The notes below the pieces were generated by a model. The model did no database searches. It saw only the letters and a program-made list of their open reading frames with translations, and was not told the origin of the DNA. A DNA stretch of 64,000 bases from Candidatus Omnitrophota bacterium (lineage in GTDB: Bacteria; Omnitrophota; Gorgyraeia; Gygaellales; Profunditerraquicolaceae). Within the stretch, counting starts at the first letter, position 1. Every line of letters starts with the position of its first letter. The position numbers were made by a program, and so were the translations under genes. This document shows positions 18,921 through 53,256 of the stretch, piece by piece. Location of the stretch: the NCBI GenBank assembly GCA_026387355.1, contig JAPLLW010000007.1:170198-234197 (forward strand), in the 5' to 3' direction.

Positions 18921-19865
18921 CTAAAACAACCTCTTGAAAAAGATAAGTATCTTCACGATATTAGTTAGTATGTTCTCTTTTACATAACGCTGCCACAAAG
19001 TTCTATGCGGCCTAAAGGTATCAAGAACAATAACTAACAATAATCCCGGTATTTTAATAAACAAGAAAAATAATGACCGCACTAAGCTCAATGAAGATCT
19101 CAACCTGGAATTCTTAGAAGGATTCCATAATCTAGTGCTTATTTCTTTAGTGTAAGCTGACTTAAACTGCCAGGAGATAGTCATCTTTTCCGGCCTTACG
19201 CTATGCAAAACCGCAGCATCCGGCAAATACTGAACTTTCAAATCAGGCATGACTTCCCGGGCGCGTTGTAATAATTCAGAATCATCTCCCCACCTAAGCC
19301 TATAGGCAGTCATAGCTAAATCTTCACGGAAACCACCTAAGAACTTAATTAAATATCGGCGAACAATAAAATTCATCCCGCCTAAGTATTCCCCGGCAGA
19401 GAGAACCCTCGGCTTATCGCCATACATGTATACGGAACCATAGCTCTCCCTGAACCAATATGGTCTTTCTGTTTTAAATAACGCCAGACTTGGCCCACCG
19501 CAGAAATCCGGGTTATATTCTCTGCATCCGTTTATTACTGCACTTAACCATGAGGTTGTTAATTCCACATCGTCATCAAGATAGGCGAGGTATTCTCCAC
19601 GCGCAACCTCAGCGCCTAGATTACGCGCACGGCTTAAGTTAGGGATTGGCAGAAAGAAATACCTTAATGGTAATTTTGCGGCGTACTCCTTTAAAATAAC
19701 AGCTACTCCGGGAAATGCAACGTTGTCATTCTCCACAACAACTACTTCCCATCCTTCTTTACAATTCCAATCCTGTTGAGTTAAGCTCTTAAGCGCCTGA
19801 CTAAGGTATCCTGGCCTGCGAAAAGTACAGATAACTACACTAAGAAAGATTCCGTTTGTTTCCAT
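18921..19865 (-). CDS. glycosyltransferase family 2
   Basis: 'LSVVICTFRRPGYLSQALKSL' and a 'DDD' region. C-terminal hydrophobic segment. Confidence 0.7.
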   Translation of the reverse strand: METNGIFLSVVICTFRRPGYLSQALKSLTQQDWNCKEGWEVVVVENDNVAFPGVAVILKEYAAKLPLRYFFLPIPNLSRARNLGAEVARGEYLAYLDDDVELTTSWLSAVINGCREYNPDFCGGPSLALFKTERPYWFRESYGSVYMYGDKPRVLSAGEYLGGMNFIVRRYLIKFLGGFREDLAMTAYRLRWGDDSELLQRAREVMPDLKVQYLPDAAVLHSVRPEKMTISWQFKSAYTKEISTRLWNPSKNSRLRSSLSLVRSLFFLFIKIPGLLLVIVLDTFRPHRTLWQRYVKENILTNIVKILIFFKRLF

Positions 19866-25337: not shown

Positions 25338-25378
25338 TAAAAAAACCCCGCACTCATAATTAAGTGCGGGGTTTTTCA
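25338..25378. terminator. bidirectional rho-independent terminator hairpin
   Basis: 'AAAAAAACCCCGCACTcataattaAGTGCGGGGTTTTT' is a 10-bp GC-rich stem flanked by an A-run and a T-run. It lies directly downstream of the minus-strand gene ending at 25393. Confidence 0.6.
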
Positions 25379-37785: not shown

Positions 37786-38181
37786 TTAATGGAGTGAAAA
37801 GCTTTGTGATGGATGACTAAAATCTGAGGAAGGCTTGCTGAAATCATCCGAAGGCCGGCTAAATTCACCCGAGGTTTTATTAAAATCATTTGAGGGTTGG
37901 CTAAAATCATCTGATGGCGAGGAAAAGTTATCTGAAGGTTTATCGAAATCACCTGAAATAGGCGAAAAGTCTATAGAAGAGTCGGAGAAATCTTCTGATG
38001 GCCTTCTAAAATCTCCTGAGGATATATTAAAGTCTTCTGAGGGCATATCAAAATCATCGGAAGGCTCGCTAAAATCCTCCGATGGCTTCTTAAATACAGC
38101 CTCATTAGTATCATTCACAGAAGCTAAAACAAACTGTACAGATAATAATACAAATAAGATTGCATACACTAACCTTTTCAT
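37786..38181 (-). CDS. secreted acidic tandem-repeat protein (PSxDF heptad/octad repeats)
   Basis: Signal peptide 'MKRLVYAILFVLLSVQFVLASV', then about 14 tandem units of 'PS[ED]DF[SND]x'. The plus-strand ORF 37835..38185 is the antisense mirror of the repeats. Confidence 0.5.
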   Translation of the reverse strand: MKRLVYAILFVLLSVQFVLASVNDTNEAVFKKPSEDFSEPSDDFDMPSEDFNISSGDFRRPSEDFSDSSIDFSPISGDFDKPSDNFSSPSDDFSQPSNDFNKTSGEFSRPSDDFSKPSSDFSHPSQSFSLH

Positions 38182-39786: not shown

Positions 39787-39835
39787 CTTGCCACCTCCTG
39801 CCTTAATAGACGAAGCTAGGAGGATAATCTAACTC

Positions 39836-39866
39836 AAAAAAAATCCCCAAATCTTTCGATTAGGGG
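39836..39866 (-). terminator. rho-independent terminator (minus strand) just upstream of the BNR gene RBS
   Basis: On the minus strand: 'CCCCTAATCGAAAGATTTGGGG' hairpin followed by 'ATTTTTTTT'. Confidence 0.5.
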
Positions 39867-39992
39867 AATTAAAAGCGGCAAGGGGAAATTTAGTTTTTGT
39901 TTGTTTTTTTCCGGGCATTGCCTGCCCGCTGGTAGTTTACCCCTTGCCTCATTGATAAATATAACACATTCTACCCATAATTTCAAGTAGGC

Positions 39993-40064
39993 ACAAAAAA
40001 AAGGGGTCAGAATTATTTATTCTAGCACATAAACTGTTGAATAAATAATTCTGACCCCTTTTTT
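39993..40064. repeat. palindromic mini-repeat element, long-loop form (copy A)
   Basis: Arms 'AAGGGGTCAGAATTATTTATTC' / 'GAATAAATAATTCTGACCCCTT' form a perfect ~24-bp inverted repeat around a 16-nt loop, with A- and T-runs outside. Lies immediately 3' of the gene ending at 40079. Confidence 0.7.
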
Positions 40065-40078
40065 ACCCTTTACTCAAC

Positions 40079-40504
40079 TTACCAAAGGTAATCTTTTATC
40101 TTCTGATCAGCCCTTAAATAAGCATATTCAGGAACCATTACCGGCTTATTATAAGGCGGAACCATGAAAGTCAATGTATCAAATACCCCCGCTCCTGCGC
40201 GAATCACGCTAGTAACTGCTCCCTGAACCAGACCAAATGTTATGCCTGTTAACGGATCAGTTTCATCAGATACTTTACATACCTGAGCTGGAATTTCTGT
40301 CCAGAAACCCACGCTATTCATTACCCCGCGATTCAGCTTGTTTATCGGCCTATCGCCATACGGGATCTTATCCGCATCGATTACAGGAATCGTGTTTATG
40401 CTACCATATTCAATATAATCATCCCCCATTTCATGCGCATACACAAATGAGGTTGCAGCCATTAAAACTACCAAAGCAAAAAGTACTAAAATCAAATTTT
40501 TCAT
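40079..40504 (-). CDS. exosortase-system-associated small secreted protein (TIGR04073-like)
   Basis: Signal peptide plus 'KLNRGVMNSVGFWTEIP...RAGAGVFDTLTFMVP', matching my recollection of the TIGR04073 family pattern (RGxxN...G(W/F)xEIP ... R(T/A)GAG..(E/D)..TF..P). Confidence 0.5.
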   Translation of the reverse strand: MKNLILVLFALVVLMAATSFVYAHEMGDDYIEYGSINTIPVIDADKIPYGDRPINKLNRGVMNSVGFWTEIPAQVCKVSDETDPLTGITFGLVQGAVTSVIRAGAGVFDTLTFMVPPYNKPVMVPEYAYLRADQKIKDYLW

Positions 40505-40535
40505 TTTTCCTCCTCCTTTAATCTACCTGACCCTT

Positions 40536-40778
40536 TTAGGATTTATGAATTTCTTCTATCAGCCTTGCTTTCAAGGTTTTAGCTGAATCTATCTTATCTC
40601 CCGAAATACCCGCCTCCATGGCAAAATCAATCAATCCACGAAGTATTTCGTTATAGGAGAGTTTATGTCCTGTTGAGAAAAGAGCATCTTTGCCTAGTTT
40701 ATCCAGGAAATCTATCTCCTGTCGGCCTAGCATGGTGATAACTCTGTGCACCATGATCTGTTTATCTAGCTTGTTCAT
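40536..40778 (-). CDS. small hypothetical protein (~80 aa)
   Basis: The ORF track starts at 40811, but an ATG at 40778 ('MNKLDKQ...') is preceded by 'AAAAGGGGGTGG' at SD distance. No recognisable domain. Confidence 0.45.
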   Translation of the reverse strand: MNKLDKQIMVHRVITMLGRQEIDFLDKLGKDALFSTGHKLSYNEILRGLIDFAMEAGISGDKIDSAKTLKARLIEEIHKS

Positions 40779-40814
40779 ATTGTACCACCCCCTTTTCAAA
40801 ATGTCCAGCATTAT

Positions 40815-40919
40815 TTATGCCGGCATCCCTAGATATAACCTTATGGCCTGTATGAAATTAAGGTGTCTTTTCTGCGTCCTTCTTCCTCTTTTAACCATCT
40901 TCCTGTGCATGCGTCTCAT
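40815..40919 (-). CDS. candidate 34-aa highly basic micro-ORF (MRRMHRKMVKRGRRTQKRH...)
   Basis: Strong SD 'GAAAAGGAGGGG' 5 nt upstream of the ATG, immediately downstream of the intrinsic terminator of the structured RNA. Not in the ORF track because it is under 60 aa. Confidence 0.2.
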   Translation of the reverse strand: MRRMHRKMVKRGRRTQKRHLNFIQAIRLYLGMPA

Positions 40920-40959
40920 TTTCCCCTCCTTTTCTAGTTCTTACGCTGGGGCTCATAAA

Positions 40960-40988
40960 CAAAAAACCCTAAAAGGCTTATTTAGGGT
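40960..40988 (-). terminator. rho-independent terminator (minus strand)
   Basis: Minus strand: 'CCCTAAAtaagcctTTTAGGG' followed by 'TTTTTTGTTT'. Confidence 0.55.
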
Positions 40989-41260
40989 TCATCCTTTTGG
41001 TAACCCCGCTATCCGCCACACTTCATGACGGACCGGAAGCTTTGCCTCTGCTTCGCTCTTTAATTAATGACTTATTAACTTTCGAGCTTCGCAGAGCCCT
41101 ACGAAGTCCGTCATAGCTTTTTCAAGCCTATTAAAGGACGAAGTAGGGGCCCCAACATTACTGTTAGTTTGCCTCCGCCACACTTCGTGGCGGACCCGCC
41201 ATCTTTGTGGCGGGTTTATCACTAGGTCAAATGCACCAAATTGTCAAAGTGTCAAATTAC
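40960..41260 (-). ncRNA. candidate ~300-nt highly structured small RNA or long leader (unclassified)
   Basis: Bounded by a near-consensus sigma70 promoter (41261-41296) and an intrinsic terminator (40960-40988). Contains several perfect GC-rich hairpins ('CCCGCCAcaaagaTGGCGGG', 'CCGCCACgaagtGTGGCGG', 'GGGGCCCC') and nested long-range pairings ('TGACGGAC'...'GTCCGTCA'). No match recognised to RNase P, SRP, tmRNA, 6S or common riboswitch cores. Confidence 0.3.
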
Positions 41261-41296
41261 ACTTGAAGTATAACATATTTTTTTGGCATTTGTCAA
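41261..41296 (-). promoter_or_regulatory. sigma70-type promoter (minus strand): TTGACA, 18-nt spacer, TATACT
   Basis: Minus-strand reading 'caccTTGACAaatgccaaaaaaatatgtTATACTtcaagtg'. Two further TTGACA hexamers follow within 40 nt downstream. Confidence 0.5.
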
Positions 41297-41302
41297 GGTG
41301 CC

Positions 41303-43495
41303 CTAATTTTGAGTTTCCAGGCTCAAAATCTCTGCTTTTACCTCTTTATAGCTTATAAGATCCAAACTACTATAAATTTCCTGCGCCTGGCGCAGATGTT
41401 CCCTGGCTTTGCTCTTTTTACCCAGCTTCTTAAACAGCAATCCCAGATTTCGCTCTGCTGCGGCCAATTCTAGCCTTGAATGGACCTGGGTAGCAAATAT
41501 AACTGCCTGTTTTAAGGCCTCTTCTGCCTCTAGGGACCTATCCATTTCCATATAGAGCTCGCCAATCATGTTATAATCAGAAGCTAAATTTACCTTATTG
41601 CCCTGCAACTGATCAATTCTTAGGCCGGAAAGATAGGAATCTAGCGCCTTTTGATACTGTTTTTCATATAAATAGAGCTCTCCTAAGTTAAAATAGTAAT
41701 CGCTTAGCTCATGCTTAAGCGCTAATTTCTCAAAAAGCGCCTGGCTTTTACGGTAAAATTGTTGGGCAGTGCCATAATCGTCCTTATTAGCAAAAACCAG
41801 GCCAATATCAAAATAATCGCAAGCCAGATTATAACGATGCGCATAAAGATGCTGATGCTCTAAGTTAATAGCTGTGCTTTTAGTTAACAAAACAAGTGCG
41901 GTGTCGTAATCCTTCTTATCTGTATGCCAGACCGCAAGCTTACGCAGCGCTATAGCCTCATTTAACTTATCACCATGCTTGACTGCAAGATTAAGCGCCT
42001 TATTGTAGAAATCAAGGGCTTTTGCATATTCACCTTCTAATTGATAAAACCAACCGATTTCAATATACGCTGATAAAAGGCTCTTAGTATCCTGTTTTTT
42101 CTCAACCAGTAGCGCATAAGTAAAATAGAAATTAAGCGCTTTTTCTTTATCACCGGTCCGGTAATATGTATCTGCCAATAGGTGATAAATCTCGGCAAAA
42201 GACTTATCTTTACTAATTATTTGCTCACCTAGCCTAAACACCTCTTCATTCTTACCTTTAGCAAATAATTTATTTGCCTTTAAATAAAGATAATACGCTC
42301 CCGGGTTAGTGGTTGGCAACCACAAATAAAAGAATGTGCTTAGCAAGAAAATGCTCACTAAAAGAATAATTCCGGGTATCCATTTCTTACTTAATTTTAA
42401 TTTGTGCCTTGGCTTAATTGACTTTTGTTTTGGCTTAAATATAACAAAACCAGGATCTCCGTAAAGTAAGTAATTAGCCCAATGTAATGAAATTATCCCA
42501 TATTCGTTAACTAGTTTAACTCTGGCTAAACGCACGCTCTCTCCCACTGATCTTCCATGGATCAGACAATGATAAAATTCTTTGGCAAAGGTTAGGCTTG
42601 CGCAATCTTCAATTCTACGTATCGATCCTATATAATGCCTTACTCCGGAAAATAGAAATGCCGCAGCTAGAGAATAATTCTTTCTCTGATAATCATGTTC
42701 AATTATAACCTCAACTCCTGCTTGGGCTGAATGACATGCATTTGAGAATACCAGCGTCGGTAAAGAGGCAGCCTGGCCCATACTTAAAATATCCTGAATG
42801 GAAAATTTACCATCGCTTAAGACCCAGCCGCTATTCTTTGGGTTCTGCGCTACATATTCGCAATGACCGGCAAAATGAACTATATCGTAATCGCAAAAGT
42901 TCTTTTTAACATACAGTTTATCAATATTGGTTGATTTGAAATCCACATGCATGGATGAGATGCTACGAGAAAACTGATTCTTGATATTTAAACCCTCCGC
43001 ATATGCCGCTTTTAAATCATCGGTAGGATTAGCTAGAATTAGCATCTTATAGATGTGCGTAGGATTGCGGTACTGAAGTACGCCTGCCTGGCTTTTAGTT
43101 CTTACTTGCCTGCCAATATTAAAACTCAAACAGAGAAAGTTCTGCCCGTCATACAAAACCTCCCAGGGGATATTGATTAATTCTTCGTCGATAACCAGCG
43201 CTAGATTTAAGACTTCACTTGCCTTTAATCTCTCCTTAACTGAGCGGCTAAGTAGATGATCCCAAAGCGCCTGGCCTGTCTTTTGAAGGTTTTTGATTAT
43301 TGCAGAATCTTTTGCTTGGGCCTTGTTCCAAACTGAGGTAATCTCATGACAAAGCTTATCGATCTCGCTAAAATCTATCTTGTGCTGGCTATAACGCTTA
43401 AGCGTTGAAGCAGTCTCTTCTGAATCAAAGATACTCATCTTCAGAAGATCATCCTGCCGGCTTATTTCTAAAACTAATCCTTTTTCACTCTGCAT
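41303..43495 (-). CDS. CHAT-domain (caspase-like) protease, single TM helix, C-terminal TPR-repeat domain
   Basis: N-terminal ~350 aa show CHAT hallmarks: 'INIPWEVLYDG', catalytic His in 'IVHFAGHCEY' and catalytic Cys in 'LVFSNACHSAQAG'. TM helix 'IPGIILLVSIFLLSTFFYLWL' lies at about residue 372-392. About 330 aa of TPR-like repeats follow (repeated 'A..YY..G..Y...G.Y..AL..Y..AL'). Confidence 0.8.
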   Translation of the reverse strand: MQSEKGLVLEISRQDDLLKMSIFDSEETASTLKRYSQHKIDFSEIDKLCHEITSVWNKAQAKDSAIIKNLQKTGQALWDHLLSRSVKERLKASEVLNLALVIDEELINIPWEVLYDGQNFLCLSFNIGRQVRTKSQAGVLQYRNPTHIYKMLILANPTDDLKAAYAEGLNIKNQFSRSISSMHVDFKSTNIDKLYVKKNFCDYDIVHFAGHCEYVAQNPKNSGWVLSDGKFSIQDILSMGQAASLPTLVFSNACHSAQAGVEVIIEHDYQRKNYSLAAAFLFSGVRHYIGSIRRIEDCASLTFAKEFYHCLIHGRSVGESVRLARVKLVNEYGIISLHWANYLLYGDPGFVIFKPKQKSIKPRHKLKLSKKWIPGIILLVSIFLLSTFFYLWLPTTNPGAYYLYLKANKLFAKGKNEEVFRLGEQIISKDKSFAEIYHLLADTYYRTGDKEKALNFYFTYALLVEKKQDTKSLLSAYIEIGWFYQLEGEYAKALDFYNKALNLAVKHGDKLNEAIALRKLAVWHTDKKDYDTALVLLTKSTAINLEHQHLYAHRYNLACDYFDIGLVFANKDDYGTAQQFYRKSQALFEKLALKHELSDYYFNLGELYLYEKQYQKALDSYLSGLRIDQLQGNKVNLASDYNMIGELYMEMDRSLEAEEALKQAVIFATQVHSRLELAAAERNLGLLFKKLGKKSKAREHLRQAQEIYSSLDLISYKEVKAEILSLETQN

Positions 43496-43500
43496 TCTGC

Positions 43501-44202
43501 TTAACCTTTTATATCTAATATAATTGAAGCAAGTTTGCCTTTGTCGCTAAGCACCTCTAAACTATACCTACCCAATAAAATATGCTCAAAAACAACCGGG
43601 CCAACGGCGCCAGAATATGATTCCAACTCCAAATTATCCTTAAACAGAGAGACTCTTAAATCCTTAATTGCATCCTGGCTGCGCTTATCTGCCACCTTAA
43701 TTATGACATTAAAATACTTATCACCTTTATTCTCAATTCTTACTTCTATTTTTTTATCGCCGATGTTTTTTAAAATCACTACCTCACCCTTAAAATCTTT
43801 TATGTTACGGCTGCGTAAAACCGGAGCCGGAATCAACTCCTGGCCCATAAGAATATCTCCGGTTGTATTAATTACCTCGAAAACATTTTCCTTAAGCCTT
43901 AACAATATCTCAAATACATTGAGCTTATTGCCTGCATCTAACAGCGCTCTTACGCGACAAAGCAGTTCCTCGGGGACATCTAAAGCTTCTGACTTCTCGC
44001 TATTTAGGCTAAGCGCTAAAATCTCTGCGCAACTTTCACATGTTAATAGATGTGTTTTAATACGCTCGCTTTCTTCGGACGGCAAGACCCCATCTAAGAA
44101 ACAGGCAAAAGTCTCATCATCCGGATGCTCTCCTTCAATACGGGAGCGCTTCTTCGCTCTTCTATAAAGCAGCTTAACTAACTCTTCAAACTTCTCAGAC
44201 AT
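43501..44202 (-). CDS. anti-sigma factor with N-terminal zf-HC2 (ZAS) domain
   Basis: 'FACFLDGVLPSEESERIKTHLLTCESCAEIL' matches the zf-HC2 consensus (..YLDGEL...E...VE.HL..C..C...L). Lies directly downstream of the ECF sigma gene. No TM helix evident. Confidence 0.65.
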   Translation of the reverse strand: MSEKFEELVKLLYRRAKKRSRIEGEHPDDETFACFLDGVLPSEESERIKTHLLTCESCAEILALSLNSEKSEALDVPEELLCRVRALLDAGNKLNVFEILLRLKENVFEVINTTGDILMGQELIPAPVLRSRNIKDFKGEVVILKNIGDKKIEVRIENKGDKYFNVIIKVADKRSQDAIKDLRVSLFKDNLELESYSGAVGPVVFEHILLGRYSLEVLSDKGKLASIILDIKG

Positions 44203-44234
44203 AGTCCTCTCCTACAATAATAGACGCGCTCACA

Positions 44235-44840
44235 CTATAAATCTAACTTAAATCCTTTTCCCTTAAAACACTCCTGCAGCTTCTCAATGAACCTGGCTTT
44301 CTGCATATCTATAGCGCCACGCGAAAGCTTTAAAAAATCCTTTAATACCTCCAGCTTTATCCCCTGGTTAATATTTAACTCAATAAGATACTTCTCCTGC
44401 TTACTTAACTTTTCAATGCAATCATTTAGACTATTAAGCATCTCTTCGTAATTTAAAAGGTCCGGAATAGAGATTGAGTTATCGGTTAATAAGTCTTTGA
44501 GGGCGACACCTTCCCCAACTTCCGCATCAAGGGAAACAGTTGATTTAAGCCTGCGTAAATAATCAAGCGTCAGATTTATGGTAACCTTCCTTAGCCATGA
44601 AGCCAGACTGCAACCGTTTATAGCCTTAAAACTGCGTAGTTTCTTGTAGTCGTCTTGGATTAAAGCAGAAAATAGCTCTTGGAAAATATCTTCGATGAAA
44701 TCCTGGTTAGCAGAAAAACCCTTTGAATTTAAGACACTGTGGATGTACTTGTAGATTAACAGGCGATAACGCTTCAAGAATTCATCCCAGGATTGCTTAT
44801 TACCACTACAGCATCCCTGGACAAAATCCAGATCGTTCAT
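44235..44840 (-). CDS. ECF-type RNA polymerase sigma-70 family factor
   Basis: Region 2 ('LIYKYIHSVL...DIFQELFSALI...WLRKVTINLTLDYLRR') and region 4 HTH ('LSKQEKYLIELNINQGIKLEVLKDFLKLSRGAIDMQKARFIEKLQ'). 201 aa. Confidence 0.75.
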   Translation of the reverse strand: MNDLDFVQGCCSGNKQSWDEFLKRYRLLIYKYIHSVLNSKGFSANQDFIEDIFQELFSALIQDDYKKLRSFKAINGCSLASWLRKVTINLTLDYLRRLKSTVSLDAEVGEGVALKDLLTDNSISIPDLLNYEEMLNSLNDCIEKLSKQEKYLIELNINQGIKLEVLKDFLKLSRGAIDMQKARFIEKLQECFKGKGFKLDL

Positions 44841-44877
44841 AGGTGCATTATAGCATTTTCGACCCTAAAAACAACAA

Positions 44878-44969
44878 TAAATGGGGTCAGAATTAATTCA
44901 AATAAAGGGGTCAGAATTATTTATTCAAACCTTAATAGCCGGAATAAATAATTCTGACCCCTTTATTTC
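44878..44969. repeat. palindromic mini-repeat element, composite (half short-form + full long-loop form; copy B)
   Basis: 'AATAAATGGGGTCAGAATTAATTC' is the left half of the short palindrome. Then come the arms 'AAGGGGTCAGAATTATTTATTC' / 'GAATAAATAATTCTGACCCCTT' around a 15-nt loop. The element abuts the stop codon of the gene ending at 44969. Confidence 0.7.
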
Positions 44970-47191
44970 TACTTTGGGTCAAAAAGTGTCCCCAAGAGCA
45001 ATAGGCTGCTCAACTTAAAAGCGACAATAAGTAAACAAGCGTTAAAAAAGCCTAGGATTGGTAAAAATACAACTCCTGCGAATATACCAGCTAACCAACC
45101 ACCTATAAGATCGCAGGCATAAAGTACACCTGAAGTACTACCTACCTTATCTTCTTTACTAGAGTATAACTTTCCAGCTAAAGGAAATTCCAACCCCATC
45201 AACATCCCTGATATGAAAAACAACAAGTAAAAAACTGTTGAATTTACGAATCCTGCAAAATTAACGATAAAATACCCAACACTAAAAGAAAATACAGCAA
45301 TTAATATCTCTAGCTTAATTAAGGTACGCAAAGCATTCTTTAATTTAGCAAGTTTAGCAGAAATTAAAATACTACCAGCTGCAATTCCAGCCATAAATAT
45401 AGCGGTTAGCATGCTTATATTCTGATATAAAGACCCATAAAAAGCCTGGTATGCAAATATCAACAGCAGATTAACCAACATCCCAAAGAATCCGGTTGTA
45501 AAAATTGCGTAGGCAACTGGAATCTTCTGGCTACGTCTCAATTTTGCTACTAAACATACTCCTAGTACAATCAATAAAACCATAATTAAACTAATCTTTA
45601 GATTTACATATTCAAAATAATCAAAAACCCTGCTAAATTGCGCTGAAAACTTTTTATTTATAATCATTAGCGTCTGGAAAACTGCTAACGGACGCAAATC
45701 CCGATTCTGCTCTTTTGTTGCTCCGGACATTTGCCGATTAAACCAATCTACCCAATCGTTGCTTAATCTATATTCAAGATATTTTGGAATTAAAATATCT
45801 TGCGGTATATTATTCCTAAATATTCTTTCGGATAATACTTTCGAACTAACTTGCATAATTTCACTAGAATCAGAGGCAATAAATATATTGCAATCTCCGG
45901 GTATCACTCGCACATACTTATTAACAAACCTCAACGAATTTAACACACTAGCATTTAAGTCTTTTAATTCTTGGCTCATATACGCCAATGAACCCGGCAT
46001 CCATAATGCTAGCAAACCGCCAGGATTTAAATGCTGCTTAGCTAATGCAAAAAACTCTGTAGTAAAATATCGATTACTTGATAAATCGGATTGATTTGAA
46101 AACCCAAACATTATTACATCGTAATGCGATTTATTATCTCTTAAGAATAACTTGGGGTCTGTATTAACTATTTTTATTCTCCCGTCGCTGAATTCCTTGA
46201 CCGTTAAAGCTGTGGAATACTTTTTAAGCTTTTCTATGATTATCGGGTCAATTTCAACATAATCTAACCTTTTAATTGGATACTGTAAAATCTCAGCAAT
46301 CAAACCACCCGCTCCTGAGCCTGCCAATAAAACCTTTTGTGGGCTAGGACTAAATAATAACGGAAGATTACCAAATTCCTTTACAAATTGCTTATCAGGA
46401 TACGGCGAGATTATAATCGGAATACCATTATAAAAGAATGTATACTGCTCAAGCTTTTTCGTAACAACGATATTGGCATAACTGGAATTTTGATAGTTCA
46501 AGACCTGCTGATTACTCCACTGTTTTTTCACTGACTCGCTCTGAAAATTATCTATTATGCTGCGCGAAAATAGAACAAAAATCAAAATAACAACAGCGGT
46601 AGCCAGATGTTTTATATTTCTTTTCGGGATTAATTGTACAGAAACCACTAAATTCAAGAATGAAATAATAAAAACGGTTTGAAAAGAATTAAAATTAGGG
46701 ATAAGCGCATATGTCAAAAGGGCTCCACCGATAATTGTCCCTAAAGTTTCCCAGGTATATATTTTACCCAGCGAATTCTCAGGCTTTTTGAGCGAATACA
46801 CCTTACAACCACAACTAAACAGACCGCCGTGTAAAAAAGCTAACGGCAAAATTATTAGAAACGACACGCTAAATATTACGGGTAAAGAAATACCTTCGGC
46901 AAAAGGTATTCCTAGAATTGTCTTAAATATCCTTGAGTAATAAATAGCAACAGGCAAAATCAAAGAAAATATGGTATTCATAACGATAAAGAAACTTAAT
47001 CTAGCCTTGATCTTATCTACAAGCTTTCCAATTACGTAGACGCCCAATGCCTCTAGAATCACCCAATTAGCCAGTATGATGCCAATGGTAAGTTCATTCC
47101 CCTGAAAACTCACCAATAGCTCGCGCAAGATAAGCACCTGCGCAACTATTCCGCTTAACCCGACTAGTAATATGGCAACTAATATATTCAT
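44969..47191 (-). CDS. polytopic membrane protein with embedded spermidine-synthase-like (aminopropyltransferase-fold) domain
   Basis: About 8 N-terminal TM helices. Central 'KVLLAGSGAGGLIAEILQYPIKRLDYVEIDPIIIEKLKKY' resembles the spermidine synthase SAM-binding signature. More TM helices at the C-terminus. The ORF track begins at a TTG at 47203; the ATG at 47191 (MNILVA...) is the more likely start. Confidence 0.65.
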   Translation of the reverse strand: MNILVAILLVGLSGIVAQVLILRELLVSFQGNELTIGIILANWVILEALGVYVIGKLVDKIKARLSFFIVMNTIFSLILPVAIYYSRIFKTILGIPFAEGISLPVIFSVSFLIILPLAFLHGGLFSCGCKVYSLKKPENSLGKIYTWETLGTIIGGALLTYALIPNFNSFQTVFIISFLNLVVSVQLIPKRNIKHLATAVVILIFVLFSRSIIDNFQSESVKKQWSNQQVLNYQNSSYANIVVTKKLEQYTFFYNGIPIIISPYPDKQFVKEFGNLPLLFSPSPQKVLLAGSGAGGLIAEILQYPIKRLDYVEIDPIIIEKLKKYSTALTVKEFSDGRIKIVNTDPKLFLRDNKSHYDVIMFGFSNQSDLSSNRYFTTEFFALAKQHLNPGGLLALWMPGSLAYMSQELKDLNASVLNSLRFVNKYVRVIPGDCNIFIASDSSEIMQVSSKVLSERIFRNNIPQDILIPKYLEYRLSNDWVDWFNRQMSGATKEQNRDLRPLAVFQTLMIINKKFSAQFSRVFDYFEYVNLKISLIMVLLIVLGVCLVAKLRRSQKIPVAYAIFTTGFFGMLVNLLLIFAYQAFYGSLYQNISMLTAIFMAGIAAGSILISAKLAKLKNALRTLIKLEILIAVFSFSVGYFIVNFAGFVNSTVFYLLFFISGMLMGLEFPLAGKLYSSKEDKVGSTSGVLYACDLIGGWLAGIFAGVVFLPILGFFNACLLIVAFKLSSLLLLGTLFDPK

Positions 47192-47200
47192 ATCAGTAAA

Positions 47201-47236
47201 CAAAAAGGGGTCAGAATTAATTCTGACCCCTTTTTG
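47201..47236. repeat. palindromic mini-repeat element, short form (copy C), acting as gap terminator
   Basis: 'CAAAAAGGGGTCAGAATTAATTCTGACCCCTTTTTG' is a perfect 36-bp palindrome between gap (end 47273) and the downstream gene start. Confidence 0.75.
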
Positions 47237-47272
47237 TTAGGAATAACTAGATGAACCGCATAAATTCAGCTA

Positions 47273-48325
47273 TTATAGCCCTTTCTTGATTATATACTCG
47301 CACAGATCAACCACTCTGTTTGAATAACCCCATTCATTATCATACCAAGAGAGCACCTTTATAAAATCATCCTGAATAACCTTAGTACACCCTGCATCAA
47401 CTATAGAACTTAAAATACAGTGATTGAAATCAACTGAGACAACCGGATCCTCAGTATACCCAAGGATTCCTTTCATCCTACCCTCAGAAGCCTCTTTCAT
47501 CGCTGCATTTATCTCCTGAACTGTAGCTTTCTTAGCTAGTAAGCAGGTTAAATCAACAACCGAAACATTCGGCGTAGGTACACGGATAGCAAAACCATCA
47601 AGCTTTCCCTTTAAATCAGGGATAACTAACGAGATTGCTTTTGCTGCGCCAGTTGAAGTAGGGATCATGGAAATAGCTGCTGCGCGTGCGCGACGCATAT
47701 CAGAATGAGCCATATCCTGTATCCTTTGGTCATTAGTGTAAGAGTGGATTGTAGTCATTAAGCCTTTTGTTATACCCCACTTGTCATTTAAAACTTTTGA
47801 GATAGGAGCGAGGCAATTCGTAGTACAGGATGCATTCGAAAGTACATTATGAATTTTAGGATCATACTTATCCTCATTAACACCCATAACTATGGTAATA
47901 TCTTCGCCTTCAGCAGGTGCAGAGATAACCACCTTCTTTGCTCCACCCATAGTAATATGACTTTCAGCACCCCTTACCTCTTTACCCTTCTTATTTATTC
48001 CGTCTTTCTTAATCGTAAATAAGCCTGTGGATTCAACTACTATTTCAACCCCTAAATCTTTCCAGGGTAACTCAACAGGATCCTTCTTACTTAAAACTTT
48101 GATCTCTTTACCATTTACTGAAATGACATCTTCACCCACAACTTTGATTTCACCGTTGAAGCGTCCATGCACTGAATCATACTTTAAAAGCAGCGCATTT
48201 GATTTTGCATCAGTTAAATCATTCACAGCGACGAGCTCTAAATCCTTAGAGTTCTTTTCTAAAATAGCGCGGGCAACTAACCGGCCGATCCTTCCAAAAC
48301 CATTGATACCAATCTTTACAGCCAT
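47273..48325 (-). CDS. gap: glyceraldehyde-3-phosphate dehydrogenase (type I)
   Basis: '[12 protein letters not shown]' NAD motif and '[12 protein letters not shown]' active-site Cys. 350 aa. Confidence 0.9.
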
Positions 48326-48365
48326 TTTGTTTCCTCCTTTTAAGCAATATGTTGGTTAATTATAC

Positions 48366-49350
48366 CTATTTCGAATTTAAATATTTAGCGGCTAACTCCG
48401 GAGGCGTAGAATTGACGTAGAAACCCGTACCCCATTCAAAACCTGCGACCTGTGTCAGCTTAGGCATAAACTCAATATGCCAATGATAAAACTCTCCGTC
48501 CCCTTCACCATTAATCGGAGCAGAGTGAACAATATAATTATATGAAAGATTCGGGAAAACCCTCTTCATCTTTACAATTGTCTCTTTTAGGATCTCTCCA
48601 AGGGCAGAGAGTTCTCCGGATAAATCCTGACAAAAATGACCGCTATGCTTCTTAGGAATTATCCAGGTTTCAAAAGGAAAACGCGAAACAAAAGGGCAAA
48701 AAGATAAAAAGAACTTATTCTCCGCAACTATGCGCTCTTTTTCCTCAATCTCTTGTCTGATAATATCGCAAAATATGCATCGCTCCCGGAAATCAAAATA
48801 TGCCTTTGCCCCATGTATCTCCTCTAGCGCATTCTTGGGAACCATAGGAAGCGCAACAATCTGTGTGTGTGGATGCTCTAAGGACGCCCCTGCTGCAGGA
48901 CCAAAATTCCTAAAATACATCAAATATTTAAAACGTTTATCTTTTGCTAAATCCGTTCCTCGACGGCAACACATCCTTAAATAATTTTCAACTTCAATCT
49001 GAAATATCTTTTGCATGATACGGTGTTTCAATTAAAACCTCATGCGCACCAACGCCATTTGACATATCATAAAGACCAAGTGGCCTACGATCAAGATCAC
49101 CTTCAATCTGTAAGGCAGGATATTTATTTGCCACTACGCGCACCTGCCACCCTGAACTGTTCGGCCAGGTCTGAGGATCACGAATTGACTCAATTTCGGG
49201 AGGAGTCATAGACTCATTGCCGTAACAAAATGGACAGACTCCGCCTTTCGGGACATACTGATCGTATTGAAAATCATCCGGTCTCGAAGGATGATCTGTA
49301 TCTACAATCACCCACCTACCTACAATAGGATCTTTTCTTAATTCAGCCAT
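48366..49350 (-). pseudogene. GalT-like HIT-family hexose-1-phosphate nucleotidyltransferase, frameshifted (two overlapping ORFs 48994..49350 and 48366..49031)
   Basis: The N-terminal ORF ('ELRKDPIVGRWVIV...CPFCYG...') and C-terminal ORF (canonical 'HPHTQIVALP' HxHxQ) together are collinear with the intact paralogue upstream. A +1/-1 shift occurs near 48994-49031, in an A/T homopolymer context. Confidence 0.6.
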
Positions 49351-50375
49351 TAAGCTTCTACTCCCCTTAAAAATTTAGCTCCCTCTTCAGGAGACAAAGG
49401 ACAGATATAAAAACCCGTTCCCCACTCAAAACCAGCTACGCGCGTTAAACGCGGCATAATTTCAATATGCCAATGAAAATCCTGATCCAGCGTCTTCCAG
49501 TAGCCTATTTTTTCCCTACGAAAAGGCGCGGTGTGGATAACATAATTATACGGCGGGTCATTTAGCCCCTTCTTAAGCTTCGAAAGCACAATCTTCATTA
49601 CCTTGCCAAGATTCTTTAAAGATTCGCTATCCTGACAGGTAAAATCGCAGCAATGTTTTTTAGGTAATATCCATATCTCAAAAGGAAAACGCGCCGCAAA
49701 AGGACTAATTGCTACAAATCCATCTAGGTCCAGAACAACTCGATCCTTAGTCGCTATCTCCTGTCTAATTACATCGCAGAATACACATCTCTCGTGATAA
49801 TCATAATATTGTTTACTACCGGTAAGTTCTTCTTTTATGCGCTTAGGAGTAACTGGTGTTGCGATAAGCTGGCTTCTTGAATGCTTTATCTGGCTGCCGC
49901 CGGCATCCTTACCATAATTCTTAAAAATACAGGCATATTTAAATCGCTGGTCTTTTTCGAGGTCTATAATCCTATCAGAATAGCACTTTAATACTTTGGC
50001 TATCTGATCGCTACTTAAATCCGCCATATTGGCAATATGCTGATTAGTTTCAACGATCATTTCGTGGGCACCTACGCCATTCATCATATCATATAGCCCT
50101 TTTCCTCGACGATCTAACTCGCCTTCGACCCTTAAGAATGGCGCAATACTAGGCACAACCCTTAAGTCCCAACCAGGAGCATTCGCAGGCGTATTGCGCG
50201 GCCTTACAGCATAAACCTCAGGAGGAGTCTGTGATTCCGCCCCTTCGCAAAAAGGACATGGTTTTTCAGGACTGGTATCTTCAGATTTTACATTAAACTG
50301 ATCCGGCCGCCTGGCCCTCTCAGTTGAGATAATTACCCATCTTCCTATAACTGGATCTTTTCTTAATTCTGGCAT
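49350..50375 (-). CDS. GalT-like HIT-family hexose-1-phosphate nucleotidyltransferase / ADP-glucose-phosphorylase-like (variant active site)
   Basis: 'ELRKDPVIGRWVII', Zn site 'CPFCEG', and 'GSQIKHSRSQLIATP' where the canonical H-x-H-x-Q appears as H-S-R-S-Q. 341 aa. Confidence 0.65.
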   Translation of the reverse strand: MPELRKDPVIGRWVIISTERARRPDQFNVKSEDTSPEKPCPFCEGAESQTPPEVYAVRPRNTPANAPGWDLRVVPSIAPFLRVEGELDRRGKGLYDMMNGVGAHEMIVETNQHIANMADLSSDQIAKVLKCYSDRIIDLEKDQRFKYACIFKNYGKDAGGSQIKHSRSQLIATPVTPKRIKEELTGSKQYYDYHERCVFCDVIRQEIATKDRVVLDLDGFVAISPFAARFPFEIWILPKKHCCDFTCQDSESLKNLGKVMKIVLSKLKKGLNDPPYNYVIHTAPFRREKIGYWKTLDQDFHWHIEIMPRLTRVAGFEWGTGFYICPLSPEEGAKFLRGVEA

Positions 50376-50403
50376 AGTAAAAAATTATAGCACAACGAAC
50401 CTT

Positions 50404-51366
50404 TTATTCAACTGCTTTTTTATAGTAGCTCCCAAAACAATCGCCTATTTTAACCTTGTGCCCATGAACAAAATCTTTAGCATTCATCCTCTTCCCGCCC
50501 TCAAGCTGTAATTCTTCAATAACTAAAACGCCCTTGCCGCATACCACAAGTATCCCATCCTGGTTAACAGCCAATACGTGTGAGCAAGAAACCGAGTCCT
50601 GCTGGCTCAAACCTTCCATGCATTTGGCTTTAAATATCTTTAGCGTCTTATTCTTAAAATATGTAAAAGCCCCCGGCCAAGGCAAGCTCCCTCTTATAAG
50701 GTTATAGATCTCGACTGAGTTTTTACACCAATCAATATACCCATCTGTTTTTTTAAGCTTAGGAGCATAGCTTACCTTCTCCTCGTCTTGCGCAACTAGC
50801 TTATATTTCTTATTCTTAATCTCGTCCAGCGCCTCAATTAATAATTCTGACCCCAATTTACGTAACTTTTCCTCAATAATCACAGAATCATCATTATCTG
50901 CAATCGATATAGCTTCCTGGAGTATTATCGGACCGGAATCCATCTTCCTTGTCACCTGCATAATAGTTATGCCTGTAGTCCTATCTCCCTGCATAATTGC
51001 CCAATTTACAGGAGCTGCTCCGCGATATTTCGGTAGCAATGAAGCGTGAATATTTATGGGTAAGATTTTCGGTATATCCAAAACTTTTTGAGACAATATT
51101 TGGCCATAAGCTACGACTACAAATAAATCTGCCCCAAATTTAATAATCTGCTTAACCGATTCAGCCGAATTCACATCCTTAGGCTGGAAAATTTCAAGGT
51201 CTGCCTTCTGCGCAACAAACTTGACGTCTGTACCAGCTAAATGCAGATGGCGGCCCTTTTTCTGATCCGGTTGCGTCACCACGCAACAAATATCTTGTTT
51301 GCTTTTGATCAAAGCCTCAAGCGCAGGAACTGCAAAATGTGAGCTACCAAAAAATATGATTTTCAT
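50404..51366 (-). CDS. fmt: methionyl-tRNA formyltransferase
   Basis: 'KIIFFGSSHFAVPALEAL', 'NIHASLLPKYRGAAPVNWAIMQGDRTTGITIMQ' and the C-terminal Fmt domain. Confidence 0.9.
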   Translation of the reverse strand: MKIIFFGSSHFAVPALEALIKSKQDICCVVTQPDQKKGRHLHLAGTDVKFVAQKADLEIFQPKDVNSAESVKQIIKFGADLFVVVAYGQILSQKVLDIPKILPINIHASLLPKYRGAAPVNWAIMQGDRTTGITIMQVTRKMDSGPIILQEAISIADNDDSVIIEEKLRKLGSELLIEALDEIKNKKYKLVAQDEEKVSYAPKLKKTDGYIDWCKNSVEIYNLIRGSLPWPGAFTYFKNKTLKIFKAKCMEGLSQQDSVSCSHVLAVNQDGILVVCGKGVLVIEELQLEGGKRMNAKDFVHGHKVKIGDCFGSYYKKAVE

Positions 51367-51396
51367 AAAATAGTAGTAGATAATAGTTAGGTGACA

Positions 51397-53256
51397 CTAT
51401 ACCGGATCCACATCAATCGTCACTATTATACCTGAATGACGAAAGCCTTTTAAGCCTTTTCTTATAAATTCTCCTGCCAAGGCGACCTTACCCGTACGCA
51501 ACAATACCTGCCAATAAAAATTACCCCGCAGCTTCGGAGGGTTAGTTGGAGTAACCGCAACTATTCCCAACTCCTTACTCTTATTTTCTTTTGTCAATTT
51601 ATTAAACAAAGCTTCAGCCGCAACTTTTACCTTCTCTTCACTTTTACCACGCAGTTTGACTAAAATCAAATGACTAAAGGGCGGAAAATTAAGTTGTTTT
51701 CTCTGCTTTAACTCTGCTTCATAGAAATAACTTTCATCTTTTTTAAAAAGCGCCTGAAAACAATGATGGGTAGGAGAACTTGTCTGAATTAAAATATTCT
51801 TATCCGTAAGCACTAATAGCCCGGCGAGCAATTCAAAGACTTTTTCAGTTGCGCGAAAATCAACGCGATTAAGAGTATTGTCTATGCCCAATACTCCGAT
51901 AAGATCAAAATTTAGATCAGCCCTTCTAATTACGCTGCTCGTAGCTATAAATATATCTGCATCGGATATATCCTGGCAGGCTTCATCCCAAATCTTAATT
52001 CGCGCTTGAGGAAAAATTCTAGATAGCTCACTCTCCATTTTTTCAGTCCCCCCTCCGGAAAATTTAATATATCCGGCGTTACACTCAGGACATATTTTGG
52101 GAGGCTCGATCTTATAATTACAATAATGACAACTCAGCAAATTGCCTTTGTAGTGATAAACCAAGTTTATATTGCAACGTGGGCACTTTAACACTTTACC
52201 ACAGGCATGACATGCTGCCTGAGTAGCAAAACCTTTTCGATTCAAAAATAAGAGTACCTTGCCCTTTGTATTCAAAACAACATAGATTGCATCTTCAAGT
52301 ATCCTAGCAACAACCTGCTTTTTCTTTCTATCTACAAATGCCAGATGTCTGGTATCGATAAGCTTAACATCGGGAAATCTACTTTTTCTTGGTACAAGCG
52401 TGTACTTGGCTTTATCTTTCTTGCTTGAATAATAGCTTTCTAGCGAAGGAACCCTGCTTCCCAAAATTAGCTTTGCACCTTCAATTTTAGCGCGCAGAAA
52501 ACCAGCTTCTCTTGCGTGATAATGCGGCACCTGATCTTGTTTATATACGCTGCTTGCTTCATCATCAATAATAATTAAACCTAAATTATTTAAAGGAGCA
52601 AAAATAGCTGAGCGCGTCCCTGCTATTACCTGAGCCCCTCCTGATTTAACCTTTAACCATGCATCTAACTCCTTAGGTTGCTTTCTATATAAAGGTTGAA
52701 CTTCAATACCAAGTTCTTTATTAATCATTGAGCTTACCTTAGCAATATCATGAACATCCGGTAACAAAACTATCGCCGACTGATTGTTCTTTAATATCTG
52801 CTTTATTTCATTAATATACACACCCCATCTTGCCCTACCATCCAAATCATGAATTAGGGAGACCTTTTTGTCCAAATAAATGGGGTCAGAATTAATTCTG
52901 ACCCCATTTATAGAAGAATCCCCTGAGATAATCTTCTTCCCTTTTCTCAAATCATCCGGTATCGCTACCTCAATCGCTTCACCCCATGAACAGCAATAAT
53001 ATTCCGAAAGCTCTTTTGTAATCAGCAACATCTCTTTACTCAACAAAGGAACCTTATCAATTAATTCTAAAATCGGCTTTAATCTTTTAATTTCGCTTTT
53101 TTTAACTAAATCCGTAACATAACCAACTATGCGTCTAGTCCCAAAACTAACCCAAACTCTTGAACCAATCTTTATTTGCTCTGCGCAATTATCCGGGACA
53201 ATATAATCAAACGGCCCGCTTACCGGTAGCCCCACTACTACCTTAGCGAATAGCAT
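51397..53256 (-). CDS. priA: primosomal protein N' (PriA) homologue lacking canonical helicase ATPase motifs
   Basis: Collinear with E. coli PriA. Has the 3'-DNA-binding N-terminus, 'IIIDDEASSVYKQDQVPHYHAR' (versus E. coli IVIDEEHDSSYKQ) and the Cys-rich Zn region 'CHACGKVLKCPRCNINLVYHYKGNLLSCHYCNYKIEPPKICPEC'. The Walker A position reads 'DLDGRARWGVY' instead of GVTGSGKTEVY. Confidence 0.85.
   Translation of the reverse strand: MLFAKVVVGLPVSGPFDYIVPDNCAEQIKIGSRVWVSFGTRRIVGYVTDLVKKSEIKRLKPILELIDKVPLLSKEMLLITKELSEYYCCSWGEAIEVAIPDDLRKGKKIISGDSSINGVRINSDPIYLDKKVSLIHDLDGRARWGVYINEIKQILKNNQSAIVLLPDVHDIAKVSSMINKELGIEVQPLYRKQPKELDAWLKVKSGGAQVIAGTRSAIFAPLNNLGLIIIDDEASSVYKQDQVPHYHAREAGFLRAKIEGAKLILGSRVPSLESYYSSKKDKAKYTLVPRKSRFPDVKLIDTRHLAFVDRKKKQVVARILEDAIYVVLNTKGKVLLFLNRKGFATQAACHACGKVLKCPRCNINLVYHYKGNLLSCHYCNYKIEPPKICPECNAGYIKFSGGGTEKMESELSRIFPQARIKIWDEACQDISDADIFIATSSVIRRADLNFDLIGVLGIDNTLNRVDFRATEKVFELLAGLLVLTDKNILIQTSSPTHHCFQALFKKDESYFYEAELKQRKQLNFPPFSHLILVKLRGKSEEKVKVAAEALFNKLTKENKSKELGIVAVTPTNPPKLRGNFYWQVLLRTGKVALAGEFIRKGLKGFRHSGIIVTIDVDPV
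52877..52912. repeat. palindromic mini-repeat element, short form (copy D), inserted in-frame inside priA
   Basis: 'ATAAATGGGGTCAGAATTAATTCTGACCCCATTTAT' is a perfect 36-bp palindrome identical in core to copies B and C. It translates in the priA frame as ...SINGVRINSDPIYL... Confidence 0.75.

Follow-up and report, generated by a model that had tools for sequence, protein, structure and literature searches.

Repetitive extragenic palindromic sequences (REPs), described with their mosaic elements (BIMEs) in E. coli and as REPINs in Pseudomonas, are short multi-copy palindromic hairpins paired with REP-associated tyrosine transposases (RAYTs, or TnpA_REP). REPs lie downstream of open reading frames (ORFs), their super-families are marked at one end by an unpaired tag, GTAG or CGTC, and untagged REP-like families have already been described (PMC3733652). 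Where REPs lie within genes, these tend to be genes of replication and repair (Di Nocera et al. 2013, PMC3733652), and RAYT-like genes also occur without flanking REPs, RAYTs being single-copy and mostly vertically inherited (PMC3733652; PMC5581495). Here we describe a family of perfect palindromes in a 64-kb stretch of a Candidatus Omnitrophota bacterium (contig JAPLLW010000007.1, positions 170,198 to 234,197; hereafter the window) and its counterparts in other genomes. By sequence it is an untagged REP-like family, and it is probable that these elements belong to the RAYT-associated type and serve as intrinsic terminators. A literature search found no paper connecting Omnitrophota with REPs or RAYTs, and searches by sequence and by Omnitrophota together with REP or RAYT returned no prior description; the repeat family is thus unreported, whereas the kind of element (REP/RAYT) is already known.

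The 12-mer GGGGTCAGAATT occurred ten times in the window, every match exact, against 0.33 expected with one mismatch permitted. These sites make up four perfect hairpins (copies A to D), a half-copy (E) and a lone site in fmt:

39997–40064: copy A, long-loop form; arms 39997–40022 and 40039–40064 (26 nt, AAAAAAGGGGTCAGAATTATTTATTC), loop 16 nt.
44877–44899: half-copy E; left arm of a short-form palindrome (ATAAATGGGGTCAGAATTAATTC), equal to the left half of copy D and adjoining copy B.
44900–44968: copy B, long-loop form; arms 27 nt (AAATAAAGGGGTCAGAATTATTTATTC), loop 15 nt.
47199–47238: copy C, short form; 40-bp perfect palindrome without loop, AACAAAAAGGGGTCAGAATT abutting AATTCTGACCCCTTTTTGTT.
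50840–50854, minus strand: lone arm-like 15-mer GGGGTCAGAATTATT within fmt, matching the long-form arm over all 15 nt.
52876–52911: copy D, short form; 36-bp perfect palindrome inside priA, in frame and encoding INGVRINSDPIY.

A sequence-only reading of the window had reported the repeats at about the right places, with exact positions 1–6 nt off, and had missed the tenth GGGGTCAGAATT site, the one in fmt. Their existence is borne out by the counts, but not the claim that four copies share an identical 24-bp core: the exact 24-mer GGGGTCAGAATTAATTCTGACCCC was present twice (47207–47230 and 52882–52905; 0 expected), and this contiguous core is confined to copies C and D. Copies A and B have only a 12–13-nt arm, GGGGTCAGAATTA, in common, inverted and 31–32 nt apart. 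Beyond the shared core the flanks differed from copy to copy, yet were complementary within each copy (AACAAAAA/TTTTTGTT, ATAAAT/ATTTAT, AAATAAA/TTTATTT). Predicted RNA folds ranged from -25 to -42 kcal/mol (z -4 to -10): -41.9 on the minus and -40.7 on the plus strand for copy A (z about -10), -42 for copy B (z -7.8), -27.9 on each strand for copy C and -25.2 for copy D. Apart from these elements, the only perfect hairpin in the window with a stem of at least 13 bp was one ordinary terminator (25341–25376). Rfam gave no family in the window, copy A attracting only sub-threshold hairpin look-alikes.

A two-arm scan of one genome per species, allowing any spacer of up to 61 nt, returned at least 115 stretches. 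They came from at least 13 metagenome-assembled genomes (MAGs) labelled Omnitrophota and, among the matches listed, from three Planctomycetales-labelled MAGs, one 'Deltaproteobacteria' MAG sharing the extended arms, and two gammaproteobacterial MAGs, each of which had 19–20 loci of 24–25-bp forms. Remaining genomes gave single scattered matches, a few being expected by chance on a rough estimate, and viral contigs gave one isolated match. Host G+C content spanned 36–67% among the matches listed. Copies amounted to at least 14–20 loci per genome elsewhere, and to four full and two partial copies in the window. The occurrence of the arms in many genomes and many gene contexts upholds the earlier proposal of a dispersed family of the REP kind, as opposed to a conserved regulatory site.

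About 3 true single 11-mers stood against about 130 pairs in roughly 0.9 Mb, most apparent singles having a decayed partner arm; because the 11-mer is almost always paired, the hairpin, and not the 12-mer, is the unit. The scan required the 11-mers only, so what remains of the arm was sampled without bias: the next 7–9 nt inward were 94–100% identical among copies within a genome, and the five nucleotides outside the arms 65–100% identical. Loop identity within a genome, in the best orientation, was 0.39–0.53, compared with 0.37–0.47 for shuffled loops. In a 56% G+C genome the arms remained A+T-rich and the loops were G+C-rich. Units were hairpins of 24–83 bp, the shortest (24–40 bp) without any internal sequence, and the conserved arm reached 20–31 nt in some genomes. 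Constant arms around near-random loops suggest that the copies are old and their arms held constant, contradicting the earlier description of the element as recently active. A check for target-site duplications found none, the flanking direct repeat being 0–1 nt in 134 of 139 copies. GTAG lay near 7 of the 139 and CGTC near 2, which we judged to be chance level.

Palindromes of different arm variants were also seen nested or fused (L096:6814–6896; L119:1373–1453; L201:10315–10400 and 19598–19680; L numbers denote loci from other genomes). In one example GGGGACGGTTCT is nested in a GGGGTCAGAATT element, occupying its loop; in another a right arm of GGGGACGGTTCT is fused to a GGGGACACTTTCC palindrome, and one genome has this fusion in priA as well as in an intergenic spacer.

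Y1 proteins were found by clustering element-adjacent ORFs and by searching with an E. coli RAYT sequence. All-against-all clustering of the element-adjacent ORFs revealed no recurrent neighbour other than Y1 proteins, which were present at three loci (L017, L079 and L078). The first two are canonical RAYTs from gammaproteobacterial MAGs; L204 is a longer contig of the L078 organism, whose MAG is labelled Planctomycetales and has Omnitrophota-type arms. The RAYT genes are:

L017, 4727–5344: RAYT with a palindrome 63 nt upstream and another 6 nt downstream.
L079, 24–626: RAYT with a palindrome 9 nt downstream.
L204, 14763–15449: RAYT scoring 87.7 bits to NCBIfam REP_Tyr_transpos (cut-off 80), with the tyrosine of YIEMNP and an HFH motif; 58 nt upstream of the gene is a complete element of Omnitrophota type, and the stop codon is overlapped by a right arm.

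The L204 RAYT was 44% identical to the L017 protein and 39% to the L079 protein. In two further RAYTs of this clade, with 67% and 59% identity to that of L017, the flanking arms were GGGGACAGAT and GGGGACGGAT, which have a GGGGAC(A/G)G head, as do the Omnitrophota variants GGGGACGGTTCT, GGGGACGTTTCT and GGGGACAGTTCT; this shared head ties the wider pattern GGGG-W-C-R-G to one RAYT clade. The search for a cognate transposase, proposed in the sequence-only reading, thus succeeded at L017, L079 and L204 but not in the window. Another candidate mobiliser, the abundant Omnitrophota Y1 family of the L078 type, was rejected: its 80 loci (454 kb) hold one GGGTCAGAA, and the gene ends are without arms. 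Half-sites near L078 were accounted for by the dense repeat content of that contig.

Placement was concentrated at gene ends. Of 64 classifiable Omnitrophota-type copies, 50 were in tandem gaps, 7 in convergent and 4 in divergent gaps, and 3 inside an ORF, at a median of 17 nt past the upstream stop; within tandem gaps 34 were nearer the upstream stop and 13 nearer the next start. In the gammaproteobacterial MAGs, convergent gaps held 22 of 35 intergenic copies, compared with a 25% background. All genes adjoining copies in the window are on the minus strand, and the main ones are:

44969–47191, minus strand: spermidine-synthase-like membrane gene (Pfam Spermine_synth), between copies C and B.
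47273–48325, minus strand: gap (GAPDH; Pfam Gp_dh_N and Gp_dh_C), with copy C at its 3' end.
51397–53256, minus strand: priA (Pfam PriA_3primeBD, Zn_ribbon_PriA and PriA_C), host of copy D.

Copy A lies 14 nt past the stop of a 141-aa ORF (40079–40504, minus strand), upstream of the leader of a BNR-repeat gene, and reads CCCC followed by a U-run on both strands. Copy B adjoins the stop codon of the spermidine-synthase-like gene (ORF end 44969). Copy C is 34 nt past the gap stop codon and 7 nt ahead of the likely ATG of the next gene (47191), the TTG at 47203 in the ORF list, which overlaps copy C, being the less likely start. Copies A, B and C each have, at a gene 3' end, a predicted stable hairpin with a G+C base and a U-run after it, and may therefore act as intrinsic terminators. 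The earlier suggestion of terminator-like placement and form is thereby supported, with hairpins just past stop codons, GGGG/CCCC at the stem base and T-runs.

Four syntenic loci (L197, L200, L201 and L202) were recovered through their PriA homologues, together with a short contig (L196). Three positions can be compared, namely the region after gap, the priA linker and the speE–sigma spacer:

Window: copy C after gap; copy D in the priA linker; copies B and E in the speE–sigma spacer.
L197: a long-loop palindrome with arms GGGGACGGTTCT after gap; a decayed copy in the linker; no sigma gene next to the spacer.
L202: a GGGGCGGTAT hairpin after gap; nothing in the linker; the speE–sigma genes absent.
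L200: an unrelated hairpin after gap; nothing in the linker; a plain spacer.
L201: nothing after gap, where the next gene is absent too; a composite of GGGGACACTTTCC and a GGGGACGGTTCT arm in the linker; the spermidine-synthase-like gene absent.
L196: the priA linker as the only site covered; a full 66-bp GGGGACGGTTCT element, in frame.

L200, the closest long syntenic relative, had no elements across 22 kb of synteny, and L197 had one separating its HAD gene from the MGDG-synthase gene, two genes that are 4 bp apart in the window. The sequence-only reading had attached weight to two copies bracketing the spermidine-synthase-like gene; because L200 and L197 have the gene without the bracket, this arrangement looks incidental. 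The gene itself, present in both of these loci, is missing from L201 (15973–16006), in which gap is followed by the sigma gene.

Copy D occupies a hypervariable linker of PriA, between the 3'-DNA-binding domain and the helicase core. The window protein is identical to P0121, named primosomal protein N' in a Candidatus Omnitrophica MAG. Across 88 homologues the linker is 19–41 aa long and without conservation, and in 7 of them it contains palindrome-encoded peptides. Six of the seven are of a KIEPSP type at an offset different from that of the window copy, and these six close homologues have a palindrome variant other than the window's. The nearest PriA homologue is 69% identical with an unalignable linker, so an empty site for copy D was not obtainable. 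The fmt site encodes a conserved peptide, KLG(A/S)ELL, and orthologues have GGAGCGGAATTA at the same codons; we rejected its interpretation as a half insertion, as the peptide is conserved and orthologues match 9/12 there.

In the untagged REP reading that we favour, the unit would be a hairpin whose stem begins with GGGGTCAGAATT, within the wider head pattern GGGG-W-C-R-G, while the remainder of the stem would need only pairing and the loop would be free. A RAYT of one clade, an HUH/Y1 single-strand DNA nuclease, would recognise the folded single strand and would spread or maintain hairpins without target duplication, and a RAYT presumably acts on the copies in the source genome. The 134 copies that lack a duplication fit Y1-type, not DDE-type, transposition. 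Copies would persist mainly just past stop codons as strong intrinsic terminators usable from either strand, a survival that we propose stems from the G+C-rich hairpin base and the A/T-run flanks on both sides, and a few would persist in frame in tolerant protein linkers such as that of PriA. Like REPs and REPINs, most of the elements follow a gene, in a tandem or convergent gap; they lack target duplications and are in some cases intragenic; a RAYT gene is flanked by the repeat (in three other genomes), and sequence variants track RAYT lineage. Unlike them, this family is without the GTAG/CGTC tag, has long, perfect stems of up to 31 nt per arm and near-random loops, and associates one core with related RAYTs in Gammaproteobacteria and in an MAG of Planctomycetes–Verrucomicrobia–Chlamydiae (PVC)/Omnitrophota type, its RAYT being known here from other genomes.

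Several observations weigh against this explanation. Neither the window nor about 400 kb of element-bearing Omnitrophota-labelled loci yielded a RAYT, and the link between RAYTs and Omnitrophota is indirect, because the sole non-gammaproteobacterial RAYT comes from a Planctomycetales-labelled MAG. The L078-type Y1 family, which is abundant in Omnitrophota, has no motif flanks (one match in 454 kb), and the classical RAYT-linked REP tag GTAG is absent. Invariant arms with near-random loops are unlike the prediction of simple whole-unit copy-and-paste, and per-site selection or arm-specific homogenisation is also needed. On the side of termination, the U-run of copy D is interrupted, and a consensus terminator scan listed none of the copies. 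The scanner probably missed them as a result of pairing between T-run and A-run in the maximal stem; as it left the elements unflagged, we set it aside as uninformative evidence.

A more tentative possibility is that one RAYT clade and the GGGG-W-C-R-G hairpins have co-diversified across Gammaproteobacteria and the Omnitrophota/PVC bacteria, and that the hairpins are the main strong terminators of Omnitrophota, renewed in place. Under such renewal, arms would be homogenised or swapped for the current variant, as at the gap terminator and the priA linker, and loops would drift.

Four rival explanations were weighed. Unlikely in our judgement is that the arms are the site of a conserved host factor binding RNA or DNA hairpins, for example one acting in termination, processing or the nucleoid, with copies kept by per-site selection, arm variants co-evolving and mobility negligible. 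Such a factor would suit arms that are invariant around random loops in any one genome and that stay A+T-rich in a 56% G+C genome where loops have drifted G+C-rich, as well as the different arm variants at the gap terminator and priA linker of related genomes, and the copies directly past stop codons. However, the analysis turned up no candidate factor, a model with a host factor alone would not predict arms flanking RAYT genes of one clade in three genomes, and nested copies and presence or absence among relatives point to insertion events. We regard as improbable a signal resembling the DNA uptake sequences (DUS) of Neisseria and the uptake signal sequences (USS) of Pasteurellaceae, in which biased uptake and recombination would give the 12-mer an advantage and inverted pairs of it would build up in terminators. 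The likeness is considerable: DUS and USS too have a constant 10–12-nt core in both arms of terminator hairpins at gene ends, variable loops, and lineage-specific variants at conserved positions, as seen here at orthologous sites. One copy moreover sits in the genome-maintenance gene priA, and the fmt site looks like a 9/12 near-match turned into a perfect 15-mer in place. Yet in genomes with DUS or USS the majority of copies are singles inside genes, whereas here the 11-mer is almost never unpaired, and it is on this ground that the uptake reading was rejected. The density here is also far lower (about 1 per 3–16 kb, not about 1 per kb), the arms are conserved over a greater length, 20–31 nt in some genomes, and the palindromes flank RAYT genes of a transposase family.

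Highly improbable is a miniature inverted-repeat transposable element (MITE) of the Correia or Rickettsia palindromic element (RPE) type moved by the DDE transposase of an insertion sequence; the Correia/RPE-MITE type was named, beside REPs, in the sequence-only reading. The appeal of a MITE lies in the inverted terminal arms, the dispersed family and the in-frame copies inside a gene, as in Rickettsia RPEs. Indeed, the priA copy resembles intragenic REPs and RPEs in being an in-frame palindrome in a tolerant part of a replication protein, adding 12–22 residues, and Correia elements, the MITEs of Neisseria, are likewise dispersed inverted repeats able to affect transcription. Correia elements are about 100–155 bp long with TA duplications, however, and RPE-1 is about 100–150 bp; our elements are much shorter hairpins of 24–83 bp, the smallest with no internal sequence at all, and lack target-site duplications. 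In addition, unlike the sites of intragenic REPs and RPEs, the host site in priA is a hypervariable linker with two arm variants in related lineages, and about 1.5 Mb of loci showed no insertion sequence whose ends match. That the copies are intrinsic terminators evolved independently and alike by chance is scarcely credible. Every extragenic copy does sit at a 3' end in terminator-like form, with a G+C-rich stem base followed by a U-run just past a stop codon, as in ordinary Rho-independent terminators. In contrast to those, the stem sequence is common to loci and genomes, and A-run and T-run sides make the hairpin symmetrical. Chance likeness is contradicted by the repeat statistics of the exact 12-mer, by the 20–31-nt arms common to several genomes and by the copy within priA. 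The sequence-only reading had dismissed independent origin, and the orthologous sites of L200, which carry an unrelated hairpin or nothing, together with the wide recurrence of the arms, agree with it.

Other features stood out among the Y1 genes recovered. In the subfamily closest to the L078 protein, the second His of the HUH motif was replaced (NHLCLL or NHLRLL). Genes of this HUH-degenerate subfamily were directly upstream of an FGE-sulfatase-domain gene (L205:10001–14142, L206:1328–5469, L204:5347–7641). At L205 and L206 this FGE-sulfatase-domain gene precedes bAvd and a reverse transcriptase, a combination known from diversity-generating retroelements. A conserved hairpin, AAGCCCGAA(T/C)TTCT...AGAA(A/G)TTCGGGCTT, lay 40–75 nt upstream of genes of the same subfamily (L116:134–170, L118:2625–2661, L120:3711–3747, L121:5926–5962 and others). 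The large Omnitrophota Y1 (RAYT-like) family is not flanked by the palindromes; most of its members retain the HUH motif and the tyrosine and have in addition a hydrophobic C-terminal segment that by eye resembles a transmembrane helix, with a coiled-coil-like tail after it. Seven of ten loci tested in this family had a c-di-GMP-I riboswitch aptamer 100–360 nt upstream on the same strand (Y1 start at about 6001):

L124, 5639–5716: c-di-GMP-I aptamer.
L136, 5660–5737: c-di-GMP-I aptamer.
L143, 5660–5737: c-di-GMP-I aptamer.
L147, 5791–5882: c-di-GMP-I aptamer.
L150, 5679–5766: c-di-GMP-I aptamer.
L160, 5822–5899: c-di-GMP-I aptamer.
L194, 5812–5891: c-di-GMP-I aptamer.

Elsewhere in the window, a conserved untranslated leader upstream of the BNR/Sortilin-repeat gene (39790–39960, minus strand; L201:20080–20250) comprised a segment AGGCAAGGGG...CCCCTTGCC enclosing a GGGCAGGCAATGCCC hairpin, then a terminator hairpin whose sequence differs in the two genomes with pairing kept, and then a U-run. 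From this layout it looks like a riboswitch, one with no Rfam match. At L201 a c-di-GMP-I-GGC aptamer (19738–19826) was present in the spacer ahead of this gene. The second galactose-1-phosphate-uridylyltransferase-like gene of the window (48366–49350, minus strand) was split into overlapping ORFs of 118 aa and 221 aa and is unsplit, at 331–333 aa, in L197, L200, L201 and L202; a frameshift or assembly error is likely. A 131-aa ORF (37786–38181, minus strand) had an N-terminal hydrophobic, signal-peptide-like stretch and about 12 tandem short repeats resembling PS(E/D)DF. GC skew was strongly negative across the window (-0.11 to -0.27 over 1–64000), all large ORFs examined between 38 and 56 kb were on the minus strand, and G+C content was 33–36% in the first 24 kb compared with 35–41% elsewhere.

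The known picture of REPs is unchanged by these elements. For Omnitrophota, a phylum known only from metagenomes, a repeat family is now defined; it marks the ends of genes, causes breaks in assemblies and yields spurious small ORFs. The tie between the GGGG-W-C-R-G head and one RAYT clade in distant phyla is useful for understanding how these nucleases read hairpins, and renewal in place, if true, would mean RAYT-driven conversion or loop-targeted replacement, not ordinary transposition to new sites. Together, invariant arms around random loops and different variants at the same sites bear on the question of whether REPs are selfish replicators or are maintained by their hosts.

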